A stretch of DNA of 64,000 nucleotides from an uncultured Gemmatimonadota bacterium (GTDB lineage: Bacteria; Latescibacterota; UBA2968; UBA8231): positions 7,666-71,665 of the forward strand of contig CAITNQ010000424.1 in NCBI GenBank assembly GCA_903893785.1, given 5' to 3'. Positions 51,813 through 64,000 of the stretch are shown here, in pieces. A model generated the notes under the pieces. That model was not told the origin of the DNA, ran no database searches, and saw nothing but the letters and a program-made list of their open reading frames with translations. Numbering within the stretch: the stretch's first letter is position 1; the number at the start of each line of letters is the position of its first letter. A program made the translations under genes and the position numbers.

Positions 51813-53258
51813 ATGAAGGACCGAAAACGTATGGAACTGGCCCCGGGTGCTCGGATTCATCTGATCGCCGCGTGCGGCACCGCCATGGGGGCACTGGCCG
51901 GCATGCTGCGCGAGCGTGGGTACCGCGTCACCGGTTCGGATACCCATGTATACCCGCCCATGAGCACCTTCTTGAGCCAGATCGGCGTCTGCGTGCAGGA
52001 AGGTTTCGACGCGGACCGGCTGGAGCCCCCACCCGACCTGGTGGTCGTCGGCAATGCAGTCTCGCGGGGGAACCCGGAGGTCGAGGCCACGCTAGCCCGG
52101 CGGCTACCCTACGCCTCCCTGCCCGAGGTGCTTCGCGAGCATTTCCTGCGCCATCGGCTGCCAGCGGTAATCACCGGAACCCACGGCAAGACCACCACCA
52201 CTGCCATGGCTGCCTACCTGTTGAGCCAGTGCGGTCAGGACCCCTCTTTCTTGGTGGCGGGTATCCCCGTCGACTTCCCGCAGCCCTACCACCTTGGGGC
52301 TGGGCAGGCATTCGTGATTGAGGGCGACGAGTACGACACGGCGTTCTTCGCCAAGCACCCCAAGTTCCTCTATTACCTGCCACACACGGTGGTCATCAAC
52401 AACATTGAGTTCGACCACGCAGACATCTACGCCGACCTGGCCGAGATAGAGCGATCGTTCCGGCAATTGGTCAACATCATCCCAGCCAATGGCCTGCTCC
52501 TGGCCAACGCCGAAGACCCGACCGTTGCCGGCCTGCTGCCAGCAGCCCCCTGTCGGGTCGAAACCTTCGGGCTGCAGGACGACGCCGACTGGGGCGCGGA
52601 GAACGTGGTCACGGCATCCGACGGGATGGCCTTCACCGTACGCCACGCAGGGTCACGCCTGGGCTCATGCCGCCTTGCCCACCATGGTCTGCACAACGTG
52701 CGCAATGCGCTGGCCGCCCTGGCGATCGCCATCCATGGCGGCGCAACTGCGGAGGCCGCATTGGCGGCCGTGGGGGGGTTTGGCGGCGTTCGGCGACGTC
52801 AGGAGCGCGTCGGGACCGTAGCCGGCATCGAACTGATAGACGATTTTGCCCACCACCCCACGGCCGTGGCGGCAACCCTAGCGGCCGTGCGTCTGGCGCG
52901 CCCCGTCGGCGCGCTCTGGGTTCTGTTCGAACCGGCCAGTTCGACCAATGCCAGAGCGTTGTTCGAAGACCAATACGCCGAGGCGTTCCGCGCCGTGGAC
53001 CATTGCCTGATCGGGCGGGTACCACGGCCCGAACGGGCGCGTCGCGATCCGCCGTTCTCGCCCGAGCGATTAGCGGCTCACATCGGCCGACTGGGCGGAG
53101 ATGGCCGCTACATCCCTGAAGCTGCCGACATGGTGACCACCGTGGTCCAAGAGGTTCTGCCGGGCGATACGGTGGTGTTCATGAGCAACGGCGGCTTCGG
53201 CGGCGTCCAACGCCTGCTGCTGGCCGCTCTCCAGGAGCGCTACGGCACCCCGGCTTGA
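51813..53258 (+). CDS. mpl: Murein peptide ligase (UDP-MurNAc:L-Ala-gamma-D-Glu-mDAP ligase)
   Basis: HLIAACGTAMGALA...GSDTHVYPPMST; GTHGKTTT; EGDEYDTAFF; EFDHADIY; DDFAHHPTA; MSNGGFGG; start may be 51831. Confidence 0.93.
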   Translation: MKDRKRMELAPGARIHLIAACGTAMGALAGMLRERGYRVTGSDTHVYPPMSTFLSQIGVCVQEGFDADRLEPPPDLVVVGNAVSRGNPEVEATLARRLPYASLPEVLREHFLRHRLPAVITGTHGKTTTTAMAAYLLSQCGQDPSFLVAGIPVDFPQPYHLGAGQAFVIEGDEYDTAFFAKHPKFLYYLPHTVVINNIEFDHADIYADLAEIERSFRQLVNIIPANGLLLANAEDPTVAGLLPAAPCRVETFGLQDDADWGAENVVTASDGMAFTVRHAGSRLGSCRLAHHGLHNVRNALAALAIAIHGGATAEAALAAVGGFGGVRRRQERVGTVAGIELIDDFAHHPTAVAATLAAVRLARPVGALWVLFEPASSTNARALFEDQYAEAFRAVDHCLIGRVPRPERARRDPPFSPERLAAHIGRLGGDGRYIPEAADMVTTVVQEVLPGDTVVFMSNGGFGGVQRLLLAALQERYGTPA

Positions 53259-53273
53259 GCCGACAACGCCGAG

Positions 53274-54164
53274 ATGAAACTCTTCCGAGTGCTCCTGATC
53301 GCGGGCCTTCTGGGCCCGTGGACAGCCACAGCGCAGGACGCACGCATCGCGCGACTGGGGGCCCAACTGGGCAGCGCGGATCCTGGTCTCAGGCGCCAGG
53401 CAGCTGTGGCACTGGGTCGAGTGAGCCTGGTGCAAAGCGTCGAGTTACTGCGCCGCGCCCGTCCAGCCGAAACGAACACCGCAGTCCGCCTTGAGATCGT
53501 CCGTGCGCTGCGCAACATCGTTTTCATGCGGTACCCGGGCTACCCGCAGGCGGTGACCGCCCTGGGCGAAGCCTGCGACGCCACGCTCGAGAGCGACGAG
53601 CTCATTCGCCTGCGGGCGCTGGAGGCCATGTGGGAGGCGGCCTCTCGCGACGTTCTGGAACCGATCCCTTACCTGAACCGCGGTCTTGCTGATCCCAGTG
53701 AGCGTCTCCGCCTGGCTGCCGTGGCCATGCTCCGCAAGTATGCCGCCCCCTCTACTGTCCAGCCGCTGGGCAACGCGGCTCTCGATCGCGGCCAACCCGA
53801 TGCCGTCCGCAAGGCCGCTATCGCTGCCCTGGGGGCAGTGCCGCTAGTTGACCCGGGCCCGGCCGGCGAGGCGACCCTACGCGCCAACCAGAAGGCGGCC
53901 GAGGCCTTGGGGACCCAGCCGATCGCCGATGCGGCACTCCTGCAGCACCGACAGGAGACCCAAGTCACATACCTCGCTCGCCTGCTGCGGAACCCCCAGA
54001 CCCAGCCGGAACTGGCTCTGGCGGCAGTGCGGGCTTTGGGCCAGGTGAAGCACCACTCGGCCGTCGCGGTACTGCAGGAGGTGGCGCTGGGTTACCGCGA
54101 TGGAGCGGTGCGGAAGCAGGCCAGCCGCGCCCTCAGCCACGTGCTGGCGCGCCAATACGAGTAG
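53274..54164 (+). CDS. Exported HEAT-repeat protein
   Basis: Signal peptide MKLFRVLLIAGLLGPWTATA; repeated 'RRQAAVALG', 'RKAAIAALG', 'AAVRALG', 'RKQASRAL'. Confidence 0.8.
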   Translation: MKLFRVLLIAGLLGPWTATAQDARIARLGAQLGSADPGLRRQAAVALGRVSLVQSVELLRRARPAETNTAVRLEIVRALRNIVFMRYPGYPQAVTALGEACDATLESDELIRLRALEAMWEAASRDVLEPIPYLNRGLADPSERLRLAAVAMLRKYAAPSTVQPLGNAALDRGQPDAVRKAAIAALGAVPLVDPGPAGEATLRANQKAAEALGTQPIADAALLQHRQETQVTYLARLLRNPQTQPELALAAVRALGQVKHHSAVAVLQEVALGYRDGAVRKQASRALSHVLARQYE

Positions 54165-54430: not shown

Positions 54431-54516
54431 TTGACCCGGCGGCACCACAGAGCAACGTCGCGGGCCTAAGTCCGCCTATCTTGTTTGACCCGGCGGCACC
54501 ACAGAGCAACGTCGCG
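54431..54516. repeat. Two exact 32-bp direct repeats (period 54 bp)
   Basis: TTGACCCGGCGGCACCACAGAGCAACGTCGCG at 54431 and 54485. Confidence 0.9.
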
Positions 54517-54758: not shown

Positions 54759-54791
54759 AAAACAAAAGGGAACGGGCATTGCCCGTTCCCT
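54759..54791 (-). terminator. Intrinsic terminator of the exbBDD operon
   Basis: Inverted repeat AGGGAACGGGCA/TGCCCGTTCCCT followed on the minus strand by TTTGTTTT. Confidence 0.8.
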
Positions 54792-54827: not shown

Positions 54828-56090
54828 TTACTGCGTGAACTGGCTCACGTTAGCGATACCACCGGGCTGCGTCAGCGCGAACACGATCAGGTTCACCCCG
54901 AACTGCAGGCCGCGCTCGCGCGCATCTGCGAACTCGTCACCCCAATACCAACTGATGTTCAGGTCACTGAAGATCACCGCGACCCGCCCACGCAGTTCAA
55001 GCAGTTCCAGAGCGAAAACATTCCCCGACGGCGCCCCGCCGCGCGGCGGACCATCCGGGAACTCATAGAAGCTGCTGAACAAGGCGTGGTTGTTAGCGAT
55101 CTTCTGCCACTTGTCGCCATCGCCGCCGAGAACCATCGGGTCCTTAATCAGATCTTTGAACTGCCGATCAAACGGGGTCCCGGCCACGCCCGCATCTTTC
55201 CCATCCAGACCCGTGTTCGGATCGCTCTGACGGATGTCCTCTGCGAAAAGGAATCCCCCTCCCTTGAGGTACTCACCGAGATTCTTCTTCTCAGTGTCCG
55301 TAATCTGCAGCGTGGCGCTGTTCCCGGTCATGTACAGGAACGGTGCCCCCATGATCTGCGGATCGCTCAACTCCACTGTGTTGCCCTGGATCCGCGCCTT
55401 GATGTCCGTATGATCGCGCATGTACCGCATAAGTTCCTCAACAGCCGTCGGGAACCTGTCTATGTTCTTGTCAGCCAGGTCATAATCGATGACGGTCATG
55501 TTGAAGTAGCCCTTGATCTTTCGCTTGTTCGCAGGATCTTGGATGATAACGGCCTGATAGCGTCCGATATCAAGATCCTGGACATTGAGCAACTCCTGGT
55601 TCAGGCTCAATGCCTCCTGCGTAGCACCGCCGGCGCCCGAGAGCTCCACCATCTTCACAGACTCAGACGTGGGCGCCATGGCCTTGCTGCCGACCATGGA
55701 CTCCAAGCCCGCCCTGTTCATGCTCCCCAGACTAGTTGGCGTTGCACCGATTACATCCGCCGCCCCGCCGCCACCAGACCCGGTTGCGAACATGTCTTGA
55801 GATAACTGGACATCCGGTGTCATGGCTGCCGTCTGCAGCATCTCCATCTGCACCTCGGAGATTTCCGGCCTTTTGGCCAACTCGAAACTCTTCTGCAGGA
55901 TGGGCCGCGGCGGATCGAAAACGACTTTCTGCACGGAATTGTCTTCTTCCTTGCCCCCCGCACGGAAGAGCAGGAAGAACGCTACAGCGTGAACCAGGAG
56001 CGACAGGATCGCTCCCCCCCGAGCCTCCTTGCGGAACTCAGGAGGGGTGAAGACCTGGTGGCCCCCTGTAACGCTCTGCCTATCTGACAT
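54828..56090 (-). CDS. DUF4159-domain protein with a TonB/TolA-like N-terminal membrane anchor
   Basis: TM 'GAILSLLVHAVAFFLLF' (SxxxH); C-terminal DUF4159-like 'PTAVEEL...PFLYMTG...EKKNLGEYLKGGGFLFAED...QFGVNLIVFALT'. Confidence 0.8.
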   Translation of the reverse strand: MSDRQSVTGGHQVFTPPEFRKEARGGAILSLLVHAVAFFLLFRAGGKEEDNSVQKVVFDPPRPILQKSFELAKRPEISEVQMEMLQTAAMTPDVQLSQDMFATGSGGGGAADVIGATPTSLGSMNRAGLESMVGSKAMAPTSESVKMVELSGAGGATQEALSLNQELLNVQDLDIGRYQAVIIQDPANKRKIKGYFNMTVIDYDLADKNIDRFPTAVEELMRYMRDHTDIKARIQGNTVELSDPQIMGAPFLYMTGNSATLQITDTEKKNLGEYLKGGGFLFAEDIRQSDPNTGLDGKDAGVAGTPFDRQFKDLIKDPMVLGGDGDKWQKIANNHALFSSFYEFPDGPPRGGAPSGNVFALELLELRGRVAVIFSDLNISWYWGDEFADARERGLQFGVNLIVFALTQPGGIANVSQFTQ

Positions 56091-56137
56091 CTCCTACCTC
56101 CAGGGCCAGGGGCCCTGAGAAATCGCTGCCCCCAGGT

Positions 56138-56548
56138 CTACCGGATGCCGATCGCTTCCACCCCGTGCTGCTTGAGAATGTCCATCACTACGATTACGCG
56201 CTCGTAGCTGGCTTTCTTGCCACCCGAGAAGATGACGTTCTTCTCCTTCTGCACATCAGGCGGGAAGAAATCGTTCAGCTTCTTCACCAGGCCTTCCTCG
56301 TTGACCTCTACCCCATTCACCTGAATCGTGTTGTTGTCGGTGACCGTGACGAGGAACTCCTGTTCCTCCTTCCACGCCGACGCCGCGCCACCCGACTGGG
56401 GCAGGTTAGCTGCGAACGAATACAGGATCACGGGAGTGATCACCAGAAAGAAGATCAGCAGCACAAGCACGATGTCCACCATCGGCGTGACGTTGATCTC
56501 CGATGAGAGCTGTCCAATACTGAATCGCTCTTTGGCCCGCTTGGACAT
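56138..56548 (-). CDS. exbD: ExbD/TolR family protein (copy 2)
   Basis: SEINVTPMVDIVLVLLIFF (conserved Asp); YERVIVVMDIL. Confidence 0.92.
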   Translation of the reverse strand: MSKRAKERFSIGQLSSEINVTPMVDIVLVLLIFFLVITPVILYSFAANLPQSGGAASAWKEEQEFLVTVTDNNTIQVNGVEVNEEGLVKKLNDFFPPDVQKEKNVIFSGGKKASYERVIVVMDILKQHGVEAIGIR

Positions 56549-56611
56549 AACTCCAATCCTTTAAGGAAGGTTGGCGCCAGTACGCAACTCGCGCGGCATC
56601 ACCCTTCTTGA

Positions 56612-57040
56612 TCAGCCTTCCTGATCCGCCTTCTTGGCCATCAGTTCCACCTCGGCAACACCCACCTGACGACAGGTGTTCATCAAGGACAAAATGTCCC
56701 CGTACTCGAGATTGCGGGCGCCCTTGAGGATCACCGGTTGGCCTTCATGGCCGCGGTAGGCCAGCAGCAACTCGCGCTCAAGCTGCGCCAGGTCCGACAT
56801 GGGCTTCATGTTAAGGAAGATCGCCCGCTCCTCGTTGATGGCCACCGTCGTCAGCTTGTCCTGGTCGCCAGTCGAACGGTTCGTCGCATGCTGGGCTATG
56901 GGAACCTCGACACTGACGCCCTGACGGATCATGGCCGTCATAACCATGTACGTGATCAGGAGCACCAACGCCACGTCCACAAGAGGCGTCACATTGATAC
57001 CTGATTGCACCTTGCCGGGACCGCCCGATCCTACTTGCAC
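56612..57040 (-). CDS. exbD: ExbD/TolR family protein (copy 1)
   Basis: SGINVTPLVDVALVLLITYMV (conserved Asp); YGDILSLM. Confidence 0.92.
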   Translation of the reverse strand: MQVGSGGPGKVQSGINVTPLVDVALVLLITYMVMTAMIRQGVSVEVPIAQHATNRSTGDQDKLTTVAINEERAIFLNMKPMSDLAQLERELLLAYRGHEGQPVILKGARNLEYGDILSLMNTCRQVGVAEVELMAKKADQEG

Positions 57041-57073
57041 GGTCGCGTCCTCCTATGTTGGCCCGGTTCTCGG

Positions 57074-57760
57074 CTACTTGCTGGTCGGGAATTCGCGCCG
57101 CAGCAAGCGCTCCACAACGCGCCCCGCCGTGCTGTTCAGTTCGACCGTCATCGCGTCGATCTGATCGGCGAAGAAATTGTACGCCCACATGGCCGGGATA
57201 GCTACGAACAGACCGACCAGCGTGCCGATCAGGGCCTCGCCAATACCGCCCGATACCGCCGCGATACCGCCCGACTCAGTCGTGGCAATCTCCTGGAACG
57301 ACCGAATCAGACCCATGATCGTGGCAAACAAACCAATGAACGGCGCGCCTGACGCGGAAGTAGCCAGCGAGACCAGCCGCTTGCGCAACTGCGTCACGGT
57401 CAGCACGATGGCTCGCCCCAGGGTGTCCTGAGCGGCTTCGAAGATGACCGCCGGCCCCTGCCCTTCCCGCGTCAGTAACTCGGCCTCCTTCAGGGACGCC
57501 AGCACGACCTGTCCCAAGAAGCAGTACTTACCGCGCGTGGGATCCGACGCCACTTTGATGACGTGCGCCATGCGGAGATTCGGGTCCTCGTTGTCCACCA
57601 ACTTAGCGAAGGCAGCCGAAGCAGCCTTACCGCGCTTGAGCACCAACCAACGTTCGAGCATGACGGCGAGCGTGTACACCGACATGAAGAGCATGAGGAC
57701 GACCAGGATCTTGGGGATGATCCCCATGTGGCCCCAGATGCTCACCAATGAAAAATCCAT
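57074..57760 (-). CDS. exbB: MotA/TolQ/ExbB proton channel protein
   Basis: LATSASGAPFIGLFAT, GGIGEALIGTLVGLFVAIPA; GGAG RBS before ATG 57760. Confidence 0.92.
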   Translation of the reverse strand: MDFSLVSIWGHMGIIPKILVVLMLFMSVYTLAVMLERWLVLKRGKAASAAFAKLVDNEDPNLRMAHVIKVASDPTRGKYCFLGQVVLASLKEAELLTREGQGPAVIFEAAQDTLGRAIVLTVTQLRKRLVSLATSASGAPFIGLFATIMGLIRSFQEIATTESGGIAAVSGGIGEALIGTLVGLFVAIPAMWAYNFFADQIDAMTVELNSTAGRVVERLLRREFPTSK

Positions 57761-57855
57761 ATACGGTCTCCTCCCTTGGGTAGGTGTCCAACGCACCTAG
57801 TGATCGGTCTACGATCGACTCGCGGTCGGGCGCCGTGCGCCTAACCGCGGGGGCC

Positions 57856-60800
57856 TCACAGAACCTGCGCCTTCTCCATGCTGGTAATCTGCTGCTTGGC
57901 GAACTCGACCTGCGTCTCGTACTTGGTCACCGTACCCCAACGTTCAACCACTTCTTTGTAAGCTGCGCCAGCCTTCTTGTAATCCTGCTGGTTCTGGTAG
58001 ACCACACCGATCTGGACACACGCGTTGACCGCCTGCATGCTCTCGGGGAACTTCTCGATCACGTCCCGGAAAACCTTGACGGCGTCGTCGTACTCCTTCT
58101 CGTCAAAGAACTTCTCTCCCTCCAGGTACAGGTTGTACGCGCGGATTTCACCGAGGTGCTCCAGCAATGTGGCCGCCTTCTTCCGCAGGGCCAGGTCCTG
58201 GGACGACGTCAGCTTGTCTTCCGGGTACAGATCCAGGAAGTGCTGATAGCTCTCCTTGGCTTTGTCATACTCTTTAAGACTGTAGTAGTAATCACCCACG
58301 GTGAACTGGCTGCGCGGCCCGTAGCGATCGTACGGGAACCGCGCCACCACCTGTTCGAACAGCCCCATCGCCTCGGCTTCACGCTTGAGGTTGATCAAGC
58401 ACCAGGCTTTGGAATAGAGGGCATCGTCAGTGTACTCGGAGTTGCTGTACCCGTTGATCAGGCGGTCGAAGAAGGTTAGCGACTCGCGGAAGTGCGCGTC
58501 CTTGTCTTCGTCAACCATGGCGCGCCGGTTAAAGGCCGCTTCACCGGCGCGGAAGAGGGCCTCGGCGCAGTACTCGCTCTGCGGGAACCTGTCCACCATT
58601 TCCCCGAAGACCTTGCTCGCCTCCTTCCAGTTGCCCAGGCGGTACTGAGCCCAGGCAGTGTAGTAATAGGCGTGCACCGCCTTCTCGTCGTTCGCGTACT
58701 TTGTATAGAACTCCTTAAACGCGGTTGCCATAGGCGTCAGAGCCGCGGTCTGAGCAGTAGACGCCTCGTTGTAGGCCACGCCTATCTGGAACAGCGACGC
58801 CTTCGCCCAGTTGCTGTTCGGGTACTGATCAACTACCTTGCGGAAGGTCTCGAGCGCCTTGTTGACGTCGCGGTTCTTGAAATAGGCCGAACCCTGGATG
58901 AACAGGGCGTTGGCCTTTATGTCTTCCGTCTTCGCGATGTCTACCGTCTGCTGCGCGACTTCGATGCTCTTGGGGAAATTGTTGACGCGGTAGTAGCTGT
59001 TGGCCAAGCGGACTAGGATCTTTTCACGATCCTCCGGGGTCGTCAGCTGGGGCAACATCTCCTCGTATGTAGCGATCGACTCATTCGGGTCAGCATCCTC
59101 AGCCAGAGTAACGAGCTTCAGGCGCGCTGACCGCTGCAGTTCCGCGTCCCCGGCCGTGATGACTTCCTTGAGCAGTCCGGTGGCTTCCTGGTTCTTGCTC
59201 AATGCGGCATAGGCCAGCGCCATCGAATACTTGACCTTCACCAGCATGTCGGGCGGCATGTCGGACTTGAGCAGGTATTCGTAGTCGCTCAAAGCCTTGT
59301 CGTACTTGCCAACGTTGAAGAAGGCCAACCCGCGGCCGTAATGGGAATCCCGCACAGGGCTTGTACTGGGATACTGATCGATCACCTTGGTGAAACCCGC
59401 GAGCGCTTCCGGGTACCGTTTGGAGTTGAGATCCAACTGCGCCAGGTGGTACAGCGCTTTCGATTCCAGGTCCGGCTTGCCCGAGACCGTCTGGAGCAAC
59501 TCTGTGAGCATCTTCCGTGCTTCGTCGCTCTTGCCCTGCTCGACCAGGATGCCTGCCTTGCCGGTCAAGGCGGCGACATAGGAGTCGCCTGCGTCAGGCG
59601 GGACCTTGGAGAAGGCGGCCAGTGCCTCGGCGATCTTGCCCTGACTGCGGTACAGAACGCCCAACCCGTACATGGCGTCAGCACCGGTCTTGGTCGAGCC
59701 GTACTCGTCTGCCAGCTTCTCGTAAATCTTGAACGCCTCTTCGGTCTGGCCATTCTTGTATTTGATCTGGCCCAACCTGAGCAGGCAGGACGGTGCGAAC
59801 TCAGAACGCGGGTATTTCTCGACCACCTCGCCAAACAGCGCCTCTACTTGCGCATAGTCACCCAGCTTCTCGGAAGCGAAGCCGGCGTTATACAGGGCAA
59901 GGGCCCGCAACTCGGTATCGACATCCGGGTAGTTCTTGATGACGGCCAGGTAGTCGTCACGCGCTTCCGAGTACTTCCCCGCGTAGTACCGCGCTTCGCC
60001 CTTATTGTACTGCGCGTTTGGCGGGTATGGAGTGTCTGCGTAAAGGTTGATGACCTGGTCGTAGGCGCTCCAAGCGTCGTCGTACTTCTTCCATTCCATG
60101 TAATTGTCGCCGATGCGCATCTGCACCTTCGCCTTGTAGAAGCGCTCTTCGGCGATCTCCTGCACGGCGATCAACTCTTTGTACGCTTCCTCAAAGCGCC
60201 CGTCCTTGCGGAAGATCTCGGCGACACGCAGAGACGAGGTCTCGAACAGCTCGCGGTACTTCTCGAAATCGAGGTTCTTGCCTTCACGGAAGGACCCGCG
60301 GAGGAGCTCGAACATGCGATCGTAGAGACCACGCACATTACGGTAGCTGGCGATGGCTTCATCGGAACGCCCGAGCTTGTCAAGTGAACTGGCTTTGAGG
60401 TACTCTGCCTGAGCGATGATCGGGTTGTTGGGGTACTGGTCGAGAATCTTCTGGGCGAAATCGACCGCGGTCTGGTAGTCGCCCTTCTCGAAGTGCGCGC
60501 TGGCAATCTGGAATTGGGCGTCCGGCGCGTACTTGTCGTCGGGGTATTTGGCAAGCATGTTCTGCAACGTAACGATGCTCTTGTCGTACTCTTTGGCAAA
60601 GAACTCAGACCAGCCGCTGTAGTAGTACGCCTTCCCCGCAAGCTTGGAGTTGGGGAACAGATTCACGTACGACATGTATTCCTGCGATGCTTCCCCGTAT
60701 TTCTTCTGCAGGAAGCGGCTCTCGGCGATCTCGTACTGCACCATCGACCGGAACTGCTCTGGCACTGAGTGCCCCGTTACCACGTGCCGGTACGCTTCGA

Positions 60801-61095
60801 CAGCCTCGTCGTGCTGGCCGCTCTTCTTGCGGGAGTTGCCTAGCTGGTACCATGCGGCCGCCATGACCGGGAGCTCCAACTGCTCGCCGAATTTGACGCG
60901 CACACTGTCGACCCGCACGGCTTTGCTGTTGAACTTCACGATTTTGTTGTATTCGATGATGGCGCCCTCGTACTCGCCCAAGGCGTAGAGGGACTGCCCG
61001 GCATCGAAGTTGGTCATGAGGTTCTGCGGGACTGGCATGAAGACGCTGGCCCCTAACCCCAAACCGACCGCGACTAGCCCTAGCCACACTACCAT
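57856..61095 (-). CDS. Large TPR-repeat protein (BamD/CpoB-like repeats) with an N-terminal signal or anchor
   Basis: 1079 aa of tandem 'A.Y..G..Y...K.Y..A...Y..V...YP.S' units; hydrophobic N-terminus. Confidence 0.88.
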   Translation of the reverse strand: MVVWLGLVAVGLGLGASVFMPVPQNLMTNFDAGQSLYALGEYEGAIIEYNKIVKFNSKAVRVDSVRVKFGEQLELPVMAAAWYQLGNSRKKSGQHDEAVEAYRHVVTGHSVPEQFRSMVQYEIAESRFLQKKYGEASQEYMSYVNLFPNSKLAGKAYYYSGWSEFFAKEYDKSIVTLQNMLAKYPDDKYAPDAQFQIASAHFEKGDYQTAVDFAQKILDQYPNNPIIAQAEYLKASSLDKLGRSDEAIASYRNVRGLYDRMFELLRGSFREGKNLDFEKYRELFETSSLRVAEIFRKDGRFEEAYKELIAVQEIAEERFYKAKVQMRIGDNYMEWKKYDDAWSAYDQVINLYADTPYPPNAQYNKGEARYYAGKYSEARDDYLAVIKNYPDVDTELRALALYNAGFASEKLGDYAQVEALFGEVVEKYPRSEFAPSCLLRLGQIKYKNGQTEEAFKIYEKLADEYGSTKTGADAMYGLGVLYRSQGKIAEALAAFSKVPPDAGDSYVAALTGKAGILVEQGKSDEARKMLTELLQTVSGKPDLESKALYHLAQLDLNSKRYPEALAGFTKVIDQYPSTSPVRDSHYGRGLAFFNVGKYDKALSDYEYLLKSDMPPDMLVKVKYSMALAYAALSKNQEATGLLKEVITAGDAELQRSARLKLVTLAEDADPNESIATYEEMLPQLTTPEDREKILVRLANSYYRVNNFPKSIEVAQQTVDIAKTEDIKANALFIQGSAYFKNRDVNKALETFRKVVDQYPNSNWAKASLFQIGVAYNEASTAQTAALTPMATAFKEFYTKYANDEKAVHAYYYTAWAQYRLGNWKEASKVFGEMVDRFPQSEYCAEALFRAGEAAFNRRAMVDEDKDAHFRESLTFFDRLINGYSNSEYTDDALYSKAWCLINLKREAEAMGLFEQVVARFPYDRYGPRSQFTVGDYYYSLKEYDKAKESYQHFLDLYPEDKLTSSQDLALRKKAATLLEHLGEIRAYNLYLEGEKFFDEKEYDDAVKVFRDVIEKFPESMQAVNACVQIGVVYQNQQDYKKAGAAYKEVVERWGTVTKYETQVEFAKQQITSMEKAQVL

Positions 61096-61143
61096 GGCGC
61101 CGTCTCCTTACTCACGCTGGTGTGCCCAGACCGCAAGCCGGCC

Positions 61144-62073
61144 TCAGAACCGATACCCGAACGAGAAACGGTGCGCGCCGTTGGTTTCCGTCAGGTCGAG
61201 TGGCAGGTTGTAACCGTAGTCAAAGAGCACTTTGCCCATGGTGTAACCCAGACCCGCGTTGATGTCGCCCGAGGCGTCCGACTCAAAGAGTTTGCTGCCG
61301 CCGGCCCGCAACATCAGGCCACCGACAACGCGCATCTCGCCACCGACCAGCAACCGACTGGTCTTCTGGTCAGACACGTCGCGCAGGATCCACTGGGCCG
61401 AGATCAGCGAGTTCTCGTGCATCCGGTACGACGCGCCCACATGCAGGTCCATGGGCAGTTTGCCCGCGTCGCTGTCGCCCTTGACCGTGGTCTTCGCCAT
61501 GTTGGGCTGGTTCAGATTCTTGACCAGCACGCCGAACTGCGCGCCTTGGATCGGCGACTTCCACAACAGTCCCAAATCCACGCCAATGTTGCCCTTGCTG
61601 GAACCCGACACCGGGTCTGCAGCGTCAAAGTCATCAACCTGCCAGAACAGGTACTTGCCGGTCAACCCCAGGTTCAGGTTCTGCCCCAACTTGTACGACA
61701 GCGCCAGGAAAGCCCCGTTCTCGGCCATCAGGTCGCTGCCGATGCGCTCGTAACCCAGGCCGAAGCCCATCCGGGCGCCCAACGGCCGGACGTAACTGGC
61801 CACATGCTGGCCCAGATCATCGCCCTCAATTCCGCCGTAGAGCATGGACACATTGGTGTAGGAGATCTCCTGGTGCGTGATCTGACCCAGTCCGGCCGGG
61901 TTCTCGAATACTGCGTCCCCGTCGTCGGCCACAGCCACGACACTGTTCCCCAGAGCAGCGGCCCGGGCGCCGGCACCGATATTCTGGATGTTCACCACTG
62001 CTTGGGCCGTCATTGCCGATCCGAGCAGCACCGCCACGGCCGCCGCCACGCCGATGTACTTGGGGGTTCTCAT
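61144..62073 (-). CDS. PorV/PorQ (UPF0164)-like outer-membrane beta-barrel
   Basis: Signal peptide; 'IGAGARAAALG...ADDGDAVFENPAGL'; C-terminal beta-signal 'HRFSFGYRF'; AGGAGG RBS before ATG 62073. Confidence 0.85.
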   Translation of the reverse strand: MRTPKYIGVAAAVAVLLGSAMTAQAVVNIQNIGAGARAAALGNSVVAVADDGDAVFENPAGLGQITHQEISYTNVSMLYGGIEGDDLGQHVASYVRPLGARMGFGLGYERIGSDLMAENGAFLALSYKLGQNLNLGLTGKYLFWQVDDFDAADPVSGSSKGNIGVDLGLLWKSPIQGAQFGVLVKNLNQPNMAKTTVKGDSDAGKLPMDLHVGASYRMHENSLISAQWILRDVSDQKTSRLLVGGEMRVVGGLMLRAGGSKLFESDASGDINAGLGYTMGKVLFDYGYNLPLDLTETNGAHRFSFGYRF

Positions 62074-62310
62074 CAGAGTCTTCCTCCTCATGACTGGATG
62101 ACGCCCTTTTTGACGCGAATCCGTTGCGTCGCTGCCTTTGGCCTGCCCCCGCAGGTCAACTCGCGGGCTGCCGGCCCCGAGCTGAGGCAGTGACATTGAT
62201 CCCATGGTGGAATTGCGTTAACCCCTCCCCAGCGCCCGGCCTCGGTGCGCGATCGGAACGCCTGGACCCAACCGGGCAGGACCGACGGCCAACCTAAAGG
62301 CGGTCGGTTA

Positions 62311-63279
62311 TCACGGCTCGGCAGTGCGTTGCTCGTGACCGCCTGTCGCCAGCGCCTTGAGGCCGCCCCAGCCGACGCCTTGCACCCCGGTAGGAAAGAT
62401 ACCGTCAACGGGCATGAGCATCAAGTCGGCGAACCGATCGGCCAGCTGGAACGAGTTCTGCCCCCCCGACAGCGACCACTTGGCGTCCAAAAGCTCAGAA
62501 AATCGGTCGTAATCGTCAATTTCCACGTTGAAACCGATTACCTCGCCCTCCCGCAATTGATGCTCGTCGCTGAGGAAAACGGCGTTGACATCGACACGGT
62601 CGAACGGCACGAACATGGCCTCATACGTGATCTCGGTCCCGCCAGCCGGCAGGTCCCGTAACTGGTACGCGGCCGCTGTGTACGGCCCGTTGGCCAGCGA
62701 ATACCAGGCTGCCGCGGAGAAATTCACGAAATAGTCGCCGTCCGGCGGCGGCCCGGCGATGACAAAGTGATTCGCTTGAGTACCGTTCTGGCGCACTTGC
62801 TCGACGGCCGACAGATCGACGAAGTTGGCGAACTGGCCGCCTGAATGGTCCGCGTCGATGAAGACCTCCATGGCGTCGTCCTGGAAAATGCGGAGCGCAG
62901 CACTGCCAGCCGGCCGGTCGATCTGGTGGATGTCGTCAGTCACGGTGGCGGCTACCCATAGCCGGTTGACCGAGGGGTTCCAGCCCACCCCAAGGCGGAT
63001 ACCCAAATCCCTGTTGTCGACGGCGCTGCCGTGAACCAGGTCGGTAAAGGCTTCAGTGCTCAGCCAGTAGGAACCCCCGACGGCATTCCAGTCAGACAGG
63101 TTCCCATCAACGACAGGGAGCCGATCATCGGTGAATTGGTAGGCCCGGATGGTCCCCGCCGGGGTCAGGTGCCCCCAGACTTGATCGGGGCCCCCCGCAA
63201 GGCCAGCAGTCAGGAACACCGCGCACACGTAAACGCAGAAGGTCGGCCGGAACCGACGCCCAGGCAATGTGTTTTTCAA
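62311..63279 (-). CDS. Exported CBM9/DOMON-like sugar-binding protein with a C-terminal WGxxK tail
   Basis: Signal peptide; PVVDGNLSDW, LWVAATVTDD, DAMEVFIDADHSGG, IGFNVEIDDYD; ends PTGVQGVGWGGLKA. Confidence 0.75.
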   Translation of the reverse strand: MKNTLPGRRFRPTFCVYVCAVFLTAGLAGGPDQVWGHLTPAGTIRAYQFTDDRLPVVDGNLSDWNAVGGSYWLSTEAFTDLVHGSAVDNRDLGIRLGVGWNPSVNRLWVAATVTDDIHQIDRPAGSAALRIFQDDAMEVFIDADHSGGQFANFVDLSAVEQVRQNGTQANHFVIAGPPPDGDYFVNFSAAAWYSLANGPYTAAAYQLRDLPAGGTEITYEAMFVPFDRVDVNAVFLSDEHQLREGEVIGFNVEIDDYDRFSELLDAKWSLSGGQNSFQLADRFADLMLMPVDGIFPTGVQGVGWGGLKALATGGHEQRTAEP

Positions 63280-63499: not shown

Positions 63500-63680
63500 G
63501 AGCCGTGGTGGCGCCCCGGCGGGAAATGCGCGCCGAGCCGACCGGGGCTCCGGGAGTGGACCCCGCGCGCGAACGACCAAGGCGCCGCGCCGGCGCGGCG
63601 CCTTGGTCCGCCTGTTCCCGGTGCCGCCCATTTGCGGGGCGAAGTGCGGCTCGCCATTGAGGCGAGCGGGCTTTTTTGTT
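63500..63680 (+). ncRNA. Candidate structured leader or sRNA ending in an intrinsic terminator
   Basis: Nested complementary blocks, a perfect 34-bp palindrome at 63575-63608, and the hairpin GCTCGCC/GGCGAGC followed by CTTTTTTGTT. Confidence 0.45.
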
Positions 63681-63724
63681 ATAGTTGGAGACCAGTCAAT
63701 CGGAGTCTTCACTGGAGGCATGGG

Positions 63725-64000
63725 ATGCGTAGACTGTGCGTGGTGATGCTCTGCTCGTTGTTGCTGGCGTCGACCCAAGAGGTCGGGGCAGCGGTCAAGC
63801 GCTGGCGGATGGGCGACGGCGCCCAGGCCTGGAACCTCACCCCGGTCACCGGACGCCTGTCGTGGGGCCGAGGTTGGGCCTGCGAGATCCTTGCCGACGA
63901 CGACGGCGACGGCAAGGTCGACGAGGATCCGGTGGAGTTGGTCGACAATGACGACGACGGCCTGGTCAACGAGGACCCCCCCGAAGCGCAGATCGACAAT
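63725..64000 (+). CDS. Exported protein with DxDxDG calcium-binding repeats (truncated by the window end)
   Basis: GGAGG RBS; MRRLCVVMLCSLLLASTQEVGA signal; DDDGDGKVDED and DNDDDGLVNED repeats; not listed in the ORF track because it has no stop codon in the window. Confidence 0.75.
   Translation, partial: MRRLCVVMLCSLLLASTQEVGAAVKRWRMGDGAQAWNLTPVTGRLSWGRGWACEILADDDGDGKVDEDPVELVDNDDDGLVNEDPPEAQIDN

Follow-up and report, generated by a model that had tools for sequence, protein, structure and literature searches.

A conserved Latescibacterota operon of ExbB/ExbD proteins, a TonB-like DUF4159 protein and a PorV-class barrel, a possible third energiser of the outer membrane

The AglRQS-Glt and Nfs machineries of Myxococcus, which serve a surface process rather than uptake, are built from a motor of the TolQ/TolR type, large TPR proteins, barrels in the outer membrane and TonB-like anchors. 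The Ton system has MotA_ExbB and ExbD proteins with the TM Glu and Asp, and a transducer in which a long linker joins an S-x3-H helix to a globular head in the periplasm. The Tol-Pal system consists of the TolQ/TolR motor, TolA with its anchor motif and domain III, TolB, Pal and TPR modules of the CpoB/YbgF type. In type IX secretion (T9SS), the motor is PorLM and PorV is the barrel of the SprA translocon; a PMF motor that acts on a carrier of the PorV type is reported in PMC10994853. The DUF4159 fold is represented by Hoch_4089 (4i66), a structural-genomics protein that consists of just the 200-residue domain and has been given no function. Literature searches found no published description of the operon system described below.

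The window, a stretch of 64,000 nucleotides from contig C424 of an uncultured Latescibacterota genome, carries six co-oriented minus-strand genes at 54828-62073. The features of this region are as follows.

63632..64000, plus strand: 5' part of a divergent 921-aa gene, running off the window, product with a C-terminal tail of T9SS type (CHU_C, FlgD_ig)
62311..63279, minus strand: CBM9-like secreted protein, 322 aa, conserved upstream neighbour (CBM9_1 21.4 bits, below cut-off)
61144..62073, minus strand: outer-membrane barrel, 309 aa, signal peptide, 14 strands, PorV/PorQ/PorP-FadL class (NCBIfam, AF2, PDB match)
57856..61095, minus strand: TPR protein, 1079 aa, hydrophobic N-terminus, three-TPR modules of YbgF/CpoB and BamD type (Pfam, NCBIfam)
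57074..57796, minus strand: ExbB/TolQ-type proton-channel subunit, GTG start (PF01618)
56612..57040, minus strand: ExbD/TolR paralogue 1, 142 aa (PF02472)
56138..56548, minus strand: ExbD/TolR paralogue 2, 136 aa (PF02472)
54828..56090, minus strand: TonB/TolA-like transducer with DUF4159 head, 420 aa (PF13709, AF2 model)
54759..54790, minus strand: intrinsic terminator, operon end (read from the sequence, folding)

The minus-strand ORFs were called at 61144-62205, 57856-61095, 57074-57796, 56612-57040, 56138-56548 and 54828-56090, with intergenic gaps of 33-63 nt. The barrel gene starts at ATG 62073, with the SD sequence GAGGAGG 9 nt upstream, which yields the same 309-aa form as the public gene calls and agrees with the end coordinate of the original prediction. 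For ExbB, an ATG located 12 codons after the listed GTG (MDFSL...) gave a better fit to the alignment with E. coli ExbB/TolQ. The terminator, GGGAACGGGC-AAT-GCCCGUUCCC followed by UUUUGUUUU, lies 38 nt 3' of the last stop codon; it was spotted by reading the sequence and is absent from the list of the consensus scan, and its folding gave −31.5 kcal/mol (z = −5.4; none of 200 shuffles equally stable). Both the ORF calls and this hairpin bear out the predicted set of six co-oriented genes ending at a terminator. The predicted lack of a TonB-dependent receptor, TonB_C and tolB/pal also held, as Pfam detected none of the Plug, TonB_dep_Rec, TonB_C, TolB and OmpA/Pal domains, nor PF03544 or PF13103, in the six proteins.

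The ExbB protein matched MotA_ExbB (PF01618) at 87 bits, and the two ExbDs, 28% identical to each other, matched PF02472 at 75.3 (paralogue 1) and 82.5 bits (paralogue 2). Among NCBIfam models, the motor scored best with TolQ (123.7 bits, cut-off 221) and TolR (90.9 and 88.2 bits, cut-off 127.3); the ExbB model gave 87.6 bits, and the operon proteins also stayed below the equivalog cut-offs of the exbB and ExbD models. In the tree, ExbB clusters with E. coli ExbB/TolQ, and the alignment indicated that it retains the TM3 Glu. The essential TM Asp, expected in both ExbDs, is indeed present in both and aligns with that of E. coli ExbD and TolR.

The 420-aa protein was originally labelled a TonB anchor with DUF4159, and Pfam, the AF2 model and motif alignment supported a TonB/TolA-type anchor in which DUF4159 replaces TonB_C. 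DUF4159 (PF13709) was detected at 98.8 bits (cut-off 25.9), and the AF2 model consisted of a TM helix (21-44), a disordered linker (about 45-170) and the DUF4159 alpha/beta head (175-420). S30-x3-H34 in the TM helix lines up with S16..H20 of E. coli TonB, and the S-x3-H motif is common to the transducer, E. coli TonB and TolA, and the TonB and TolA of the same genome. His34 was found in 67 of 73 aligned relatives, with Ser (25) or Ala (39) at position −4. The head was superimposed on the crystal structure of Hoch_4089 with Z 21.2 and rmsd 2.1 over 188 residues (26% identity), and on ThuA/class I GATase-like folds with Z 8-10. Assignment as a class I glutamine amidotransferase was rejected because no Cys, the nucleophile that this class conserves along with His and Glu, occurs in invariant or near-invariant columns of the 73 sequences and the fold match reaches only Z 8-9. 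The head more probably serves in docking than in catalysis. Unlike Hoch_4089, it is carried on a TonB-like anchor within an ExbBD operon, and unlike TonB, the transducer has a ThuA/GATase1-like head instead of TonB_C and a linker that is not proline-rich.

Starting from the observed domain identities, anchor motif, folds, gene order and co-distribution, we infer the protein contacts, the direction of transport and the client. The core of the system is probably a proton-driven ExbBD motor that pulls the DUF4159 arm. An ExbB pentamer enclosing an ExbD/ExbD' heterodimer would convert proton flow into movement, which the 420-aa protein would take up at the S-x3-H motif of its single TM helix, in the manner of TonB and TolA. 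The flexible linker of about 130 residues could then let the periplasmic head reach partners in the outer membrane. The 1079-aa TPR protein would act as the scaffold in the periplasm, with the PorV-class barrel as the operon-encoded partner in the outer membrane.

The PorV-like nature of this barrel was supported by its fold, for which PorV of the type 9 translocon ranked first; by sequence, the PorV_fam model (NF033709) gave 73.4 bits, under its cut-off of 90. In the genome scan with this model, the barrel scored 67.6 bits, and five other loci exceeded the cut-off. Scores with the PorQ, PorP, PorV2 and BamG models were weaker than with PorV_fam. The top PDB match of the 14-stranded AF2 model (pLDDT 83) was PorV 6h3i_F (TMq 0.73, E 3.5e-13, rmsd 4.1), followed by 8gl6_F, FadL/TbuX/TodX and BamG 9hiv_F, and FadL-type uptake channels are almost as near to the fold as PorV. 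The TPR protein matched many Pfam TPR families (scores up to 282 bits), tol_pal_ybgF at 333 bits over 10 stretches and BamD at 243 bits over 9 stretches (NCBIfam); its natural PDB sequence matches were CpoB, YbgF and BamD.

Conservation of the gene set was then analysed among relatives. The barrel-TPR-ExbB-ExbD-DUF4159 module was found again in 27 orthologous loci, confirming that the genes are conserved as a unit and that their arrangement goes beyond chance. ExbB and ExbD lie immediately upstream of the DUF4159 gene in all 27, the TPR gene of about 1080 aa was present in all 26 loci that extend far enough, and the barrel lies immediately upstream of it in 16 of the 17 loci with at least 900 nt of upstream sequence. 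Paralogous systems show looser forms of it, as do one MAG of the Neomarinimicrobiota and another labelled Cytophagia. The motor itself differs among these loci. A one-TM anchor together with a classical ExbB and two ExbDs was found at the present locus and at L015, L027 and L030; one ExbB with two ExbDs occurs in 3 of the 27 orthologous loci plus our own. The remainder carry one ExbD and an ExbB of a different clade, combined with a three-segment anchor in 19 scored loci and, by eye, in L016. The two-ExbD motor is confined to a small clade, in which the usual motor with one ExbD appears to have given way to a cassette with the classical-type ExbB, with alteration of the anchor architecture as well.

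The same genome was surveyed for other energy-transducing systems. Three of its four MotA/ExbB loci are a TolQ-TolR-TolA-TolB-CpoB cluster (the canonical Tol-Pal cluster, contig C258), a PBP-TPR-ExbB-ExbD-ExbD-TonB operon of the FCB type (contig C307) and a MotAB pair. Nine Plug ORFs were detected in the genome, none of them on contig C424. The presence of a canonical Tol-Pal cluster, a standard Ton operon and nine Plug receptors indicates that the operon is a third, dedicated system. We tentatively propose, with somewhat less than even confidence, that the six genes form a system of the Ton/Tol type that energises a dedicated surface-protein module of the outer membrane. More tentative again is the output, in which the pull would be used on surface proteins with T9SS-type C-terminal tails. 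On the pattern of SprA, from which PorV-cargo is removed in a motor-dependent way, the PorV/SprF-like barrel would be the target of the DUF4159 arm, and the output partners may include the CBM9-like protein, a 248-aa lipoprotein and a co-distributed family of about 915 aa.

The neighbouring genes were examined with respect to this output. Homologues of the CBM9-like gene, which is preceded by a sigma-70-like promoter match at 63329-63301 (11 of 12 positions), lie upstream of the barrel in nine relatives' loci. The divergent 921-aa protein contains CHU_C (35 bits) and FlgD_ig (38.6 bits) domains above cut-offs and a type B sorting domain below cut-off (28 bits), and homologues occupy the same divergent position at L018, L019, L023, L024 and L026. 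A gene of the ~915-aa family immediately precedes the TPR gene at L037, L044, L063 and L065, and this family and T9SS-tail genes adjoin paralogous TPR-DUF4159 pairs at L046-L049, L053, L055 and L057. Since the genome encodes about 49 CTD tails, some adjacency between operon and tail genes is expected by chance. Presence or absence of the ~915-aa family and of DUF4159 query matches agreed in 13 of 14 families of the phylum, a co-distribution derived from related genomes in which losses were perhaps few, families f2, f3 and f4 forming one class. The DUF4159 query matched none of the 56 genomes of these three families in the phylum scan; matches in f7, f8 and f10 were weak (best E-values 1e-21 to 1e-35), only one being seen to cover the anchor. 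The ~915-aa gene nearest to the operon is 18.6 kb off, beyond the window, and the linked 248-aa lipoprotein gene is missing from the window. That the module, the ~915-aa family and the lipoprotein together make a self-contained second pathway for export and surface attachment of proteins with type-B-like tails is doubtful.

The same neighbours may be read in terms of energised import, with the DUF4159 arm serving as the TonB of a new class of outer-membrane importers; these would be the FadL/PorV-like barrel or, alternatively, the ~915-aa family. Lectin-like tail-anchored proteins, the CBM9-like protein and the lipoprotein would then catch the substrate, making a PUL-like unit of a saccharolytic phylum. 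The gene order TPR-ExbB-ExbD-ExbD-transducer is shared with the Ton operon on contig C307, the barrel has a fold of the FadL class and its relatives carry the JGI label 'long-subunit fatty acid transport protein', the domains of neighbouring genes include CBM9, F5/8 type C and GHL10, and the gene after DUF4159 at L065 has a TonB C-terminal match below cut-offs (24.8 bits NCBIfam, 19.3 bits Pfam). The ~915-aa family has no sequence relative in Pfam, NCBIfam or PDB; its sole named look-alike, a TonB-dependent-receptor-like barrel cluster in the Atlas (score 0.89), is a lead that would also favour import. In contrast, neither this family nor any operon gene contains a Plug or TonB_dep_Rec domain, and the operon, unlike Ton, has a PorV-class barrel gene instead of a Plug/TBDT partner. 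The genome is already equipped with the standard Ton operon and the nine Plug receptors, and the named NCBIfam matches of the barrel are all protein-handling barrels of T9SS or BAM. FadL-family channels are not known to require energy, which also counts against import. Taken together, we consider import unlikely, though the likeliest of the rival readings.

The original prediction suggested that ExbBD replaces PorLM, and the operon might accordingly be the motor of SprA-based type IX secretion where PorLM/GldLM is missing. The likeness to T9SS lies in the barrel fold and in the T9SS-tail neighbours. A search for sprA and porK/L/M/N was positive in part: the genome encodes SprA (588 bits), PorU (594 bits) adjoining PorV, and the CTD tails, but GldL, GldM and GldN gave no match and GldK stayed below cut-off in this genome and seven relatives. 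The models detected GldK/L/M/N in a Cyclobacteriaceae control genome, although very distant homologues of GldL/M could escape them. GldL was also undetected in all nine other operon-bearing genomes. SprA was found in 10 of 10 genomes tested, nine with a full-length anchored DUF4159 locus and the tenth being the control, and in the paralogous operon at L063 the ExbD genes flank an FGE-sulfatase gene that resembles GldK (79 bits, cut-off 350). On the other hand, SprA lies on contig C160, apart from the operon. All 10 genomes tested of the sister families f2 and f3, which belong to the class of the source genome, contain SprA without detectable GldL, and DUF4159 occurs in them only as short secreted forms of about 247 aa, never anchored. 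The operon is therefore not a general stand-in for PorLM, and a role as the motor of SprA is improbable; the suggested replacement agrees with the undetected GldK/L/M/N beside SprA, but is weakened by the retention of SprA in sister families devoid of the operon.

A Tol-like role in envelope maintenance or division, by which the outer membrane would be tethered or remodelled through the YbgF/BamD-like TPR modules, is very improbable. TolQ and TolR being the top motor models, the TPR modules, the TolA-like anchor motif and the high identity between relatives of all operon parts (60-85%) are in line with such a role, but the operon differs from Tol-Pal by the lack of TolB, Pal and TolA domain III, the genome has its canonical cluster at another site, and the ExbB of most orthologous operons belongs to a non-TolQ-like clade. 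Its patchy distribution, with absence from 56 of 56 f2-f4 genomes, indicates that the operon does not provide a core envelope function.

Less probable still is an Agl-Glt-like machine moving an adhesin along the cell surface, since the likeness to AglRQS-Glt (one TolQ-like and two TolR-like genes, large TPR protein, barrel and TonB-like anchor) and the CHU_C/type-B-like tail of the divergent gene, as on gliding adhesins, are set against a DUF4159 head, no TonB_C protein of the GltG/J kind, a GltC score of 20 bits against a cut-off of 450, and restriction to one clade of the two-ExbD pattern that prompted the comparison.

The preferred reading thus remains that of a third, dedicated energiser, tentative as it is. 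The operon suggests an undescribed route for energy to the cell surface, in which a TonB-like arm ends in an uncharacterised domain. If the second export pathway considered above is true, it would represent a compact, ExbBD-driven analogue of T9SS in FCB phyla without detectable GldK/L/M/N.

The operon was found to consist of six ORFs on the minus strand, separated by intergenic gaps of 33-63 nt and transcribed in the order from the barrel gene to the gene for the DUF4159 protein.

Genes of the operon (window positions; ORF calls, the barrel from its start at ATG 62073)
62073-61144, minus strand: barrel of the PorV/FadL class
61095-57856, minus strand: TPR protein
57796-57074, minus strand: ExbB
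57040-56612, minus strand: ExbD
56548-56138, minus strand: second ExbD (ExbD')
56090-54828, minus strand: 420-aa DUF4159 protein

The sequence GAGGAGG is located 9 nt 5' of ATG 62073, and the 309-aa form of the barrel starting there is the same as in other gene calls. A GC-rich hairpin of 10 perfectly paired bp, with UUUUGUUUU after it (54759-54790), lies 38 nt past the final stop codon; folding of the hairpin gave -31.5 kcal/mol (z = -5.4), and this terminator was absent from the output of a simple consensus terminator scan. The domain list of the original prediction was borne out by both Pfam and NCBIfam, and in these two collections none of the six proteins carries a Plug, TonB_dep_Rec, TonB_C, TolB or Pal domain. 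The G+C content of the operon is 0.56-0.62, against 0.687 for the genome. As GC3 is the same in the operon genes (0.74-0.83) as in the genes on either side (0.78-0.82) and the drop sits in codon positions 1 and 2, the low G+C reflects amino-acid make-up, and horizontal transfer was ruled out as its source. About 250-330 nt beyond the terminator, two exact 29-nt copies (54431-54459 and 54485-54513) were detected 54 nt apart; no other copy exists elsewhere in the genome, and Tandem Repeats Finder detected no tandem repeats 3' of the operon. A Mur-ligase gene (51813-53258) and a HEAT-repeat gene (53274-54164), both 3' of the operon on the opposite strand, appear to be unrelated to it.

ExbB retains the Glu of TM3, and both ExbDs retain the TM Asp when aligned with E. 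coli ExbD and TolR. The identity between ExbD and ExbD' is only 28%. The AlphaFold2 model of the 420-aa protein (73-row alignment, mean pLDDT 73) shows a TM helix at residues 21-44 (...GAILSLLVHAVAFF...), disorder over about 45-170 and, over 175-420, an alpha/beta domain predicted with confidence. The S30-x3-H34 motif aligns with S16..H20 of E. coli TonB and S18..H22 of E. coli TolA, and also with TonB and TolA of the same genome. This anchor His is present in 67 of the 73 relatives, and the -4 position is occupied by Ser in 25 and by Ala in 39. The DUF4159 head matched the structural-genomics DUF4159 protein 4i66 with Z 21.2, against only Z 8-10 for ThuA-like and class I amidotransferase-like folds. 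Because the alignment of relatives contains no conserved cysteine in the head, we take it to be a putative binding module and not an amidotransferase. Residues G278-G279, H335 and N400 lie on the face of the head that is conserved. An Atlas search with the DUF4159 protein returned matches from its own family only. The barrel was modelled with 14 strands (pLDDT 83), and its nearest structure is PorV in the SprA translocon (6h3i_F, TMq 0.73), followed by FadL/TbuX/TodX and, more weakly, BamG; its sequence score of 73.4 bits is below the PorV_fam cut-off of 90. The TPR protein has a hydrophobic N-terminus followed by chained CpoB/YbgF- and BamD-type modules.

Searching with the 420-aa protein gave 381 matches at E <= 1e-3 in a 90%-clustered collection, many of them 60-80% identical, and 822 representatives at 50% clustering, many of which measure about 415 aa and align over the whole stretch between anchor and C-terminus. 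With one genome scanned per species, 78 loci were obtained, and their ORFs were searched with seven window proteins; organism labels of these relatives are those of the submitters, and their start codons were set by rule. Orthologous loci numbered 27 (L015-L040 and L077; identity 46-83%), with records labelled Latescibacterota, Gemmatimonadota or not at all. In 27/27, the DUF4159 gene is directly preceded by ExbB and ExbD genes of the same strand, and the TPR gene of about 1080 aa is present in 26/26 loci of sufficient extent. Among the 17 loci in which 900 nt or more precede the TPR gene, 16 have the barrel gene there, a count that leaves out nine loci in which the sequence ends too early; the exception, L037, carries a gene for a protein of about 915 aa where the barrel would be. 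Conservation of gene order, the check proposed with the original prediction, was thus observed for the order barrel-TPR-ExbB-ExbD-DUF4159.

The combination of one ExbB with two ExbDs, likened at the outset to the Myxococcus AglRQS-Glt gliding machinery, is correct for the window but does not represent a general pattern, as two ExbDs were found in only three of the 27 relatives (L015, L027 and L030). In a 40-row ExbB tree, for which the program flagged long branches, ExbB of the window grouped with those of L027 and L030 (support 100/99), and this group joined E. coli ExbB, E. coli TolQ and TolQ of the same genome (99/99). ExbBs of 23 other orthologous operons formed a separate clade (98/90) near those of paralogous and distant systems. 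An anchor with one hydrophobic segment and S-x3-H is paired with two ExbDs in the window, L015, L027 and L030; an anchor with two or three segments is paired with one ExbD in 19 scored loci, and likewise by eye in L016, the His being located in the first or the last segment or in both. L037-L039 combine a single-segment anchor with one ExbD. From these sequence comparisons, we read an apparent replacement of the motor cassette in the lineage of the window, with the anchor altered to match. Such a joint change would argue that anchor and motor touch, and would represent a natural experiment on the fit between motor and transducer.

The source genome, whose contig C424 carries the window at 7666-71665, is a fragmented and somewhat contaminated metagenome-assembled genome of 7.26 Mb (561 contigs, 93.8% complete, 7.8% contaminated). 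Four MotA/ExbB loci were identified, the operon under study included.

Other MotA/ExbB loci of the source genome (by contig)
C258: canonical TolQ-TolR-TolA-TolB-...-CpoB cluster
C307: PBP-TPR(638 aa)-ExbB-ExbD-ExbD-TonB operon
C112: MotA/MotB pair

The remaining five DUF4159 loci encode short secreted forms, one of them on contig C52 adjoining a DUF4175 protein, and a fusion with an ECF sigma factor; none is TonB-like. Since the canonical Tol cluster and the Ton operon lie elsewhere and the other DUF4159 loci are not TonB-like, the operon is the third ExbBD-type system of the genome, separate from the other two and served by a transducer of its own. The fusion is a 620-aa protein (C391:575-2437), in which an ECF sigma factor (regions 2 and 4) is joined to a C-terminal DUF4159; its composition suggests that DUF4159 can act as an extracytoplasmic sensing or binding module. 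The genome also encodes nine ORFs with a Plug domain, SprA (588 bits, C160), PorU (594 bits, C192) with the top PorV_fam barrel directly after it, and about 49 further ORFs matching the tail of the PorU model. In the wider survey (G000, the source genome, with G002-G010 and G047-G065), SprA was detected in 20/20 genomes tested, the control aside; these are Latescibacterota and one Neomarinimicrobiota genome. GldL was detected in 0/19 genomes tested and not in the source genome, in which PorU-PorV is present; the Bacteroidota control was positive.

A homologue of the 322-aa CBM9-like gene was found 5' of the barrel in nine relatives, and a lipoprotein gene of about 248 aa (lipobox ...SGC/LGC; L018:3604-4347 is an example) lies between the two in 10 of 11 relatives with enough upstream sequence. 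The window is without this lipoprotein gene, the segment 62088-62389 being 540 bp shorter than L030:549-1390 of the same genus; either a genuine deletion or an artefact of the assembly could account for this. Elsewhere in the genome, the lipoprotein has four paralogues. The product of the divergent gene at 63632 is a 921-aa protein whose CHU_C/FlgD_ig tail is of T9SS type, and homologues occupy the same place in five relatives. In the distant loci L044 (a metagenome-assembled genome labelled Cytophagia), L065 (Neomarinimicrobiota) and L063, genes for the barrel, a protein of about 915 aa, TPR, ExbB, ExbD and one or two DUF4159 proteins lie on the same strand, and L065 carries tail-bearing genes at both ends. 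An FGE-sulfatase gene is located between two ExbD genes of L063 (L063:8120-9595), its best NCBIfam match being GldK/PorK with 79 bits against a cut-off of 350. The gene after DUF4159 in L065 (11203-12474) and L047 (11122-12363) encodes a protein of about 415-423 aa beginning with a lipoprotein-family domain; at the C-terminus of the L065 protein, weak matches to the TonB C-terminus were noted (24.8 and 19.3 bits, both below cut-offs). A paralogous class with 29% identity (L046-L050, L053, L055 and L057) is organized in two divergent units, TPR(~1090 aa)-DUF4159-413 aa-...-tail protein-two ~915-aa genes and ExbB-ExbD-ExbD-CBM9-TPR.

The ~915-aa family has Asp-rich calcium-type repeats and no sequence relative in Pfam, NCBIfam or PDB, the best E value of the PDB profile search being 0.06. 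Four copies were found in the source genome (C424:82355-85192, C219, C289 and C415), each beside a lipoprotein paralogue; the nearest, on the contig of the window but outside it, is 18.6 kb from the operon. In the 18 genus g12 genomes listed for both queries, the distance between a ~915-aa gene and the DUF4159 gene is about 22-26 kb. Within the phylum, the DUF4159 query matched 102/168 genomes at E <= 1e-20 and the ~915-aa query 105/168 at E <= 1e-15. By family, presence or absence agreed in 13/14, with weak matches in f7, f8 and f10 and a difference in f13 (one genome); both queries were negative in f2 (0/3), f3 (0/22), f4 (0/31) and f14 (0/5). Since related genomes are not independent, this co-distribution is a lead and not a statistic.

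From these parts, we consider it likely that a chain of the Ton type forms the core of the system. It would start with ExbB5-ExbD/ExbD', a stator driven by protons, from which the S-x3-H anchor and then the flexible linker would carry the output toward the DUF4159 head, and the head would dock at the outer membrane. As to the output, we tentatively propose the handling of tail-bearing surface proteins, which may be their release, attachment or turnover, in which the PorV/SprF-like barrel would act along with the ~915-aa family and TPR would serve as a scaffold. This possible output is favoured because all named relatives of the barrel are protein-handling barrels and tail genes recur in independent paralogous systems. 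The main rival, energised import through a new class of receptor, appears unlikely, and Tol-like maintenance and gliding were ranked after it.

The specific version of the original prediction in which ExbBD is the motor of a SprA-based type IX secretion system lacking PorLM is now improbable. The PorV-like fold of the barrel, the T9SS-type tails of neighbours and the GldK-like gene within the paralogous L063 operon agree with it, as do the detection of SprA in 10/10 genomes of one test (nine with a full-length anchored DUF4159 locus, the tenth being a Cyclobacteriaceae control) and the failure to detect GldL in the source genome and in nine tested others that bear the operon. GldL, GldM and GldN were unmatched in the source genome and seven relatives, and the only matches of GldK there were to FGE-sulfatases, below threshold; in the Cyclobacteriaceae control, GldK/L/M/N were all above cut-off in a single cluster. 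However, SprA was also found in 10/10 genomes, most of them closed chromosomes, from f2 and f3, two families belonging to the same class, with GldL in 0/10 and the control positive in the same run, and the only DUF4159 proteins of these genomes are forms of about 247 aa without anchor. These observations indicate that SprA-based secretion in the phylum is independent of the operon.

We class the Ton-like system, as predicted from its genes, as a machine in which an ExbBD motor is combined with a transducer head and an outer-membrane module that are both new. It would work like Ton and Tol but belongs to neither, being without TonB_C, Plug, TolB and Pal domains; it has a barrel of the T9SS class but not PorLM/KN, and resembles Agl-Glt in outline only. 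In the main text of open-access literature, DUF4159 was found by name only in the Pfam database paper, and neither this gene set nor an ExbBD operon containing DUF4159 was found described. Likewise, no report on type IX secretion in Latescibacteria was found, and searches for T9SS with SprA and Gemmatimonadetes, or for ExbB, ExbD, TPR and PorV, gave nothing relevant. The passages of PMC4454575 on ExbB/ExbD and Latescibacteria mention only ordinary TonB-dependent import, and in passages of a review on T9SS (PMC11205867), motors of bacteria other than Bacteroidota are not treated.

The finding bears on how surface processes are powered in FCB bacteria that carry SprA, PorU, PorV and dozens of tail-bearing proteins with GldKLMN undetectable. 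To our knowledge, among arms linking ExbB/TolQ-type motors to the outer membrane, only TonB and TolA have been studied well, and these two share the fold in which they end. In the present operon, which is conserved and encodes its own outer-membrane barrel and scaffold, this anchor motif precedes a head of another kind, the uncharacterised DUF4159. If the proposed chain is true, the set of 5:2-motor machines would be extended, and DUF4159 would gain its first functional setting.
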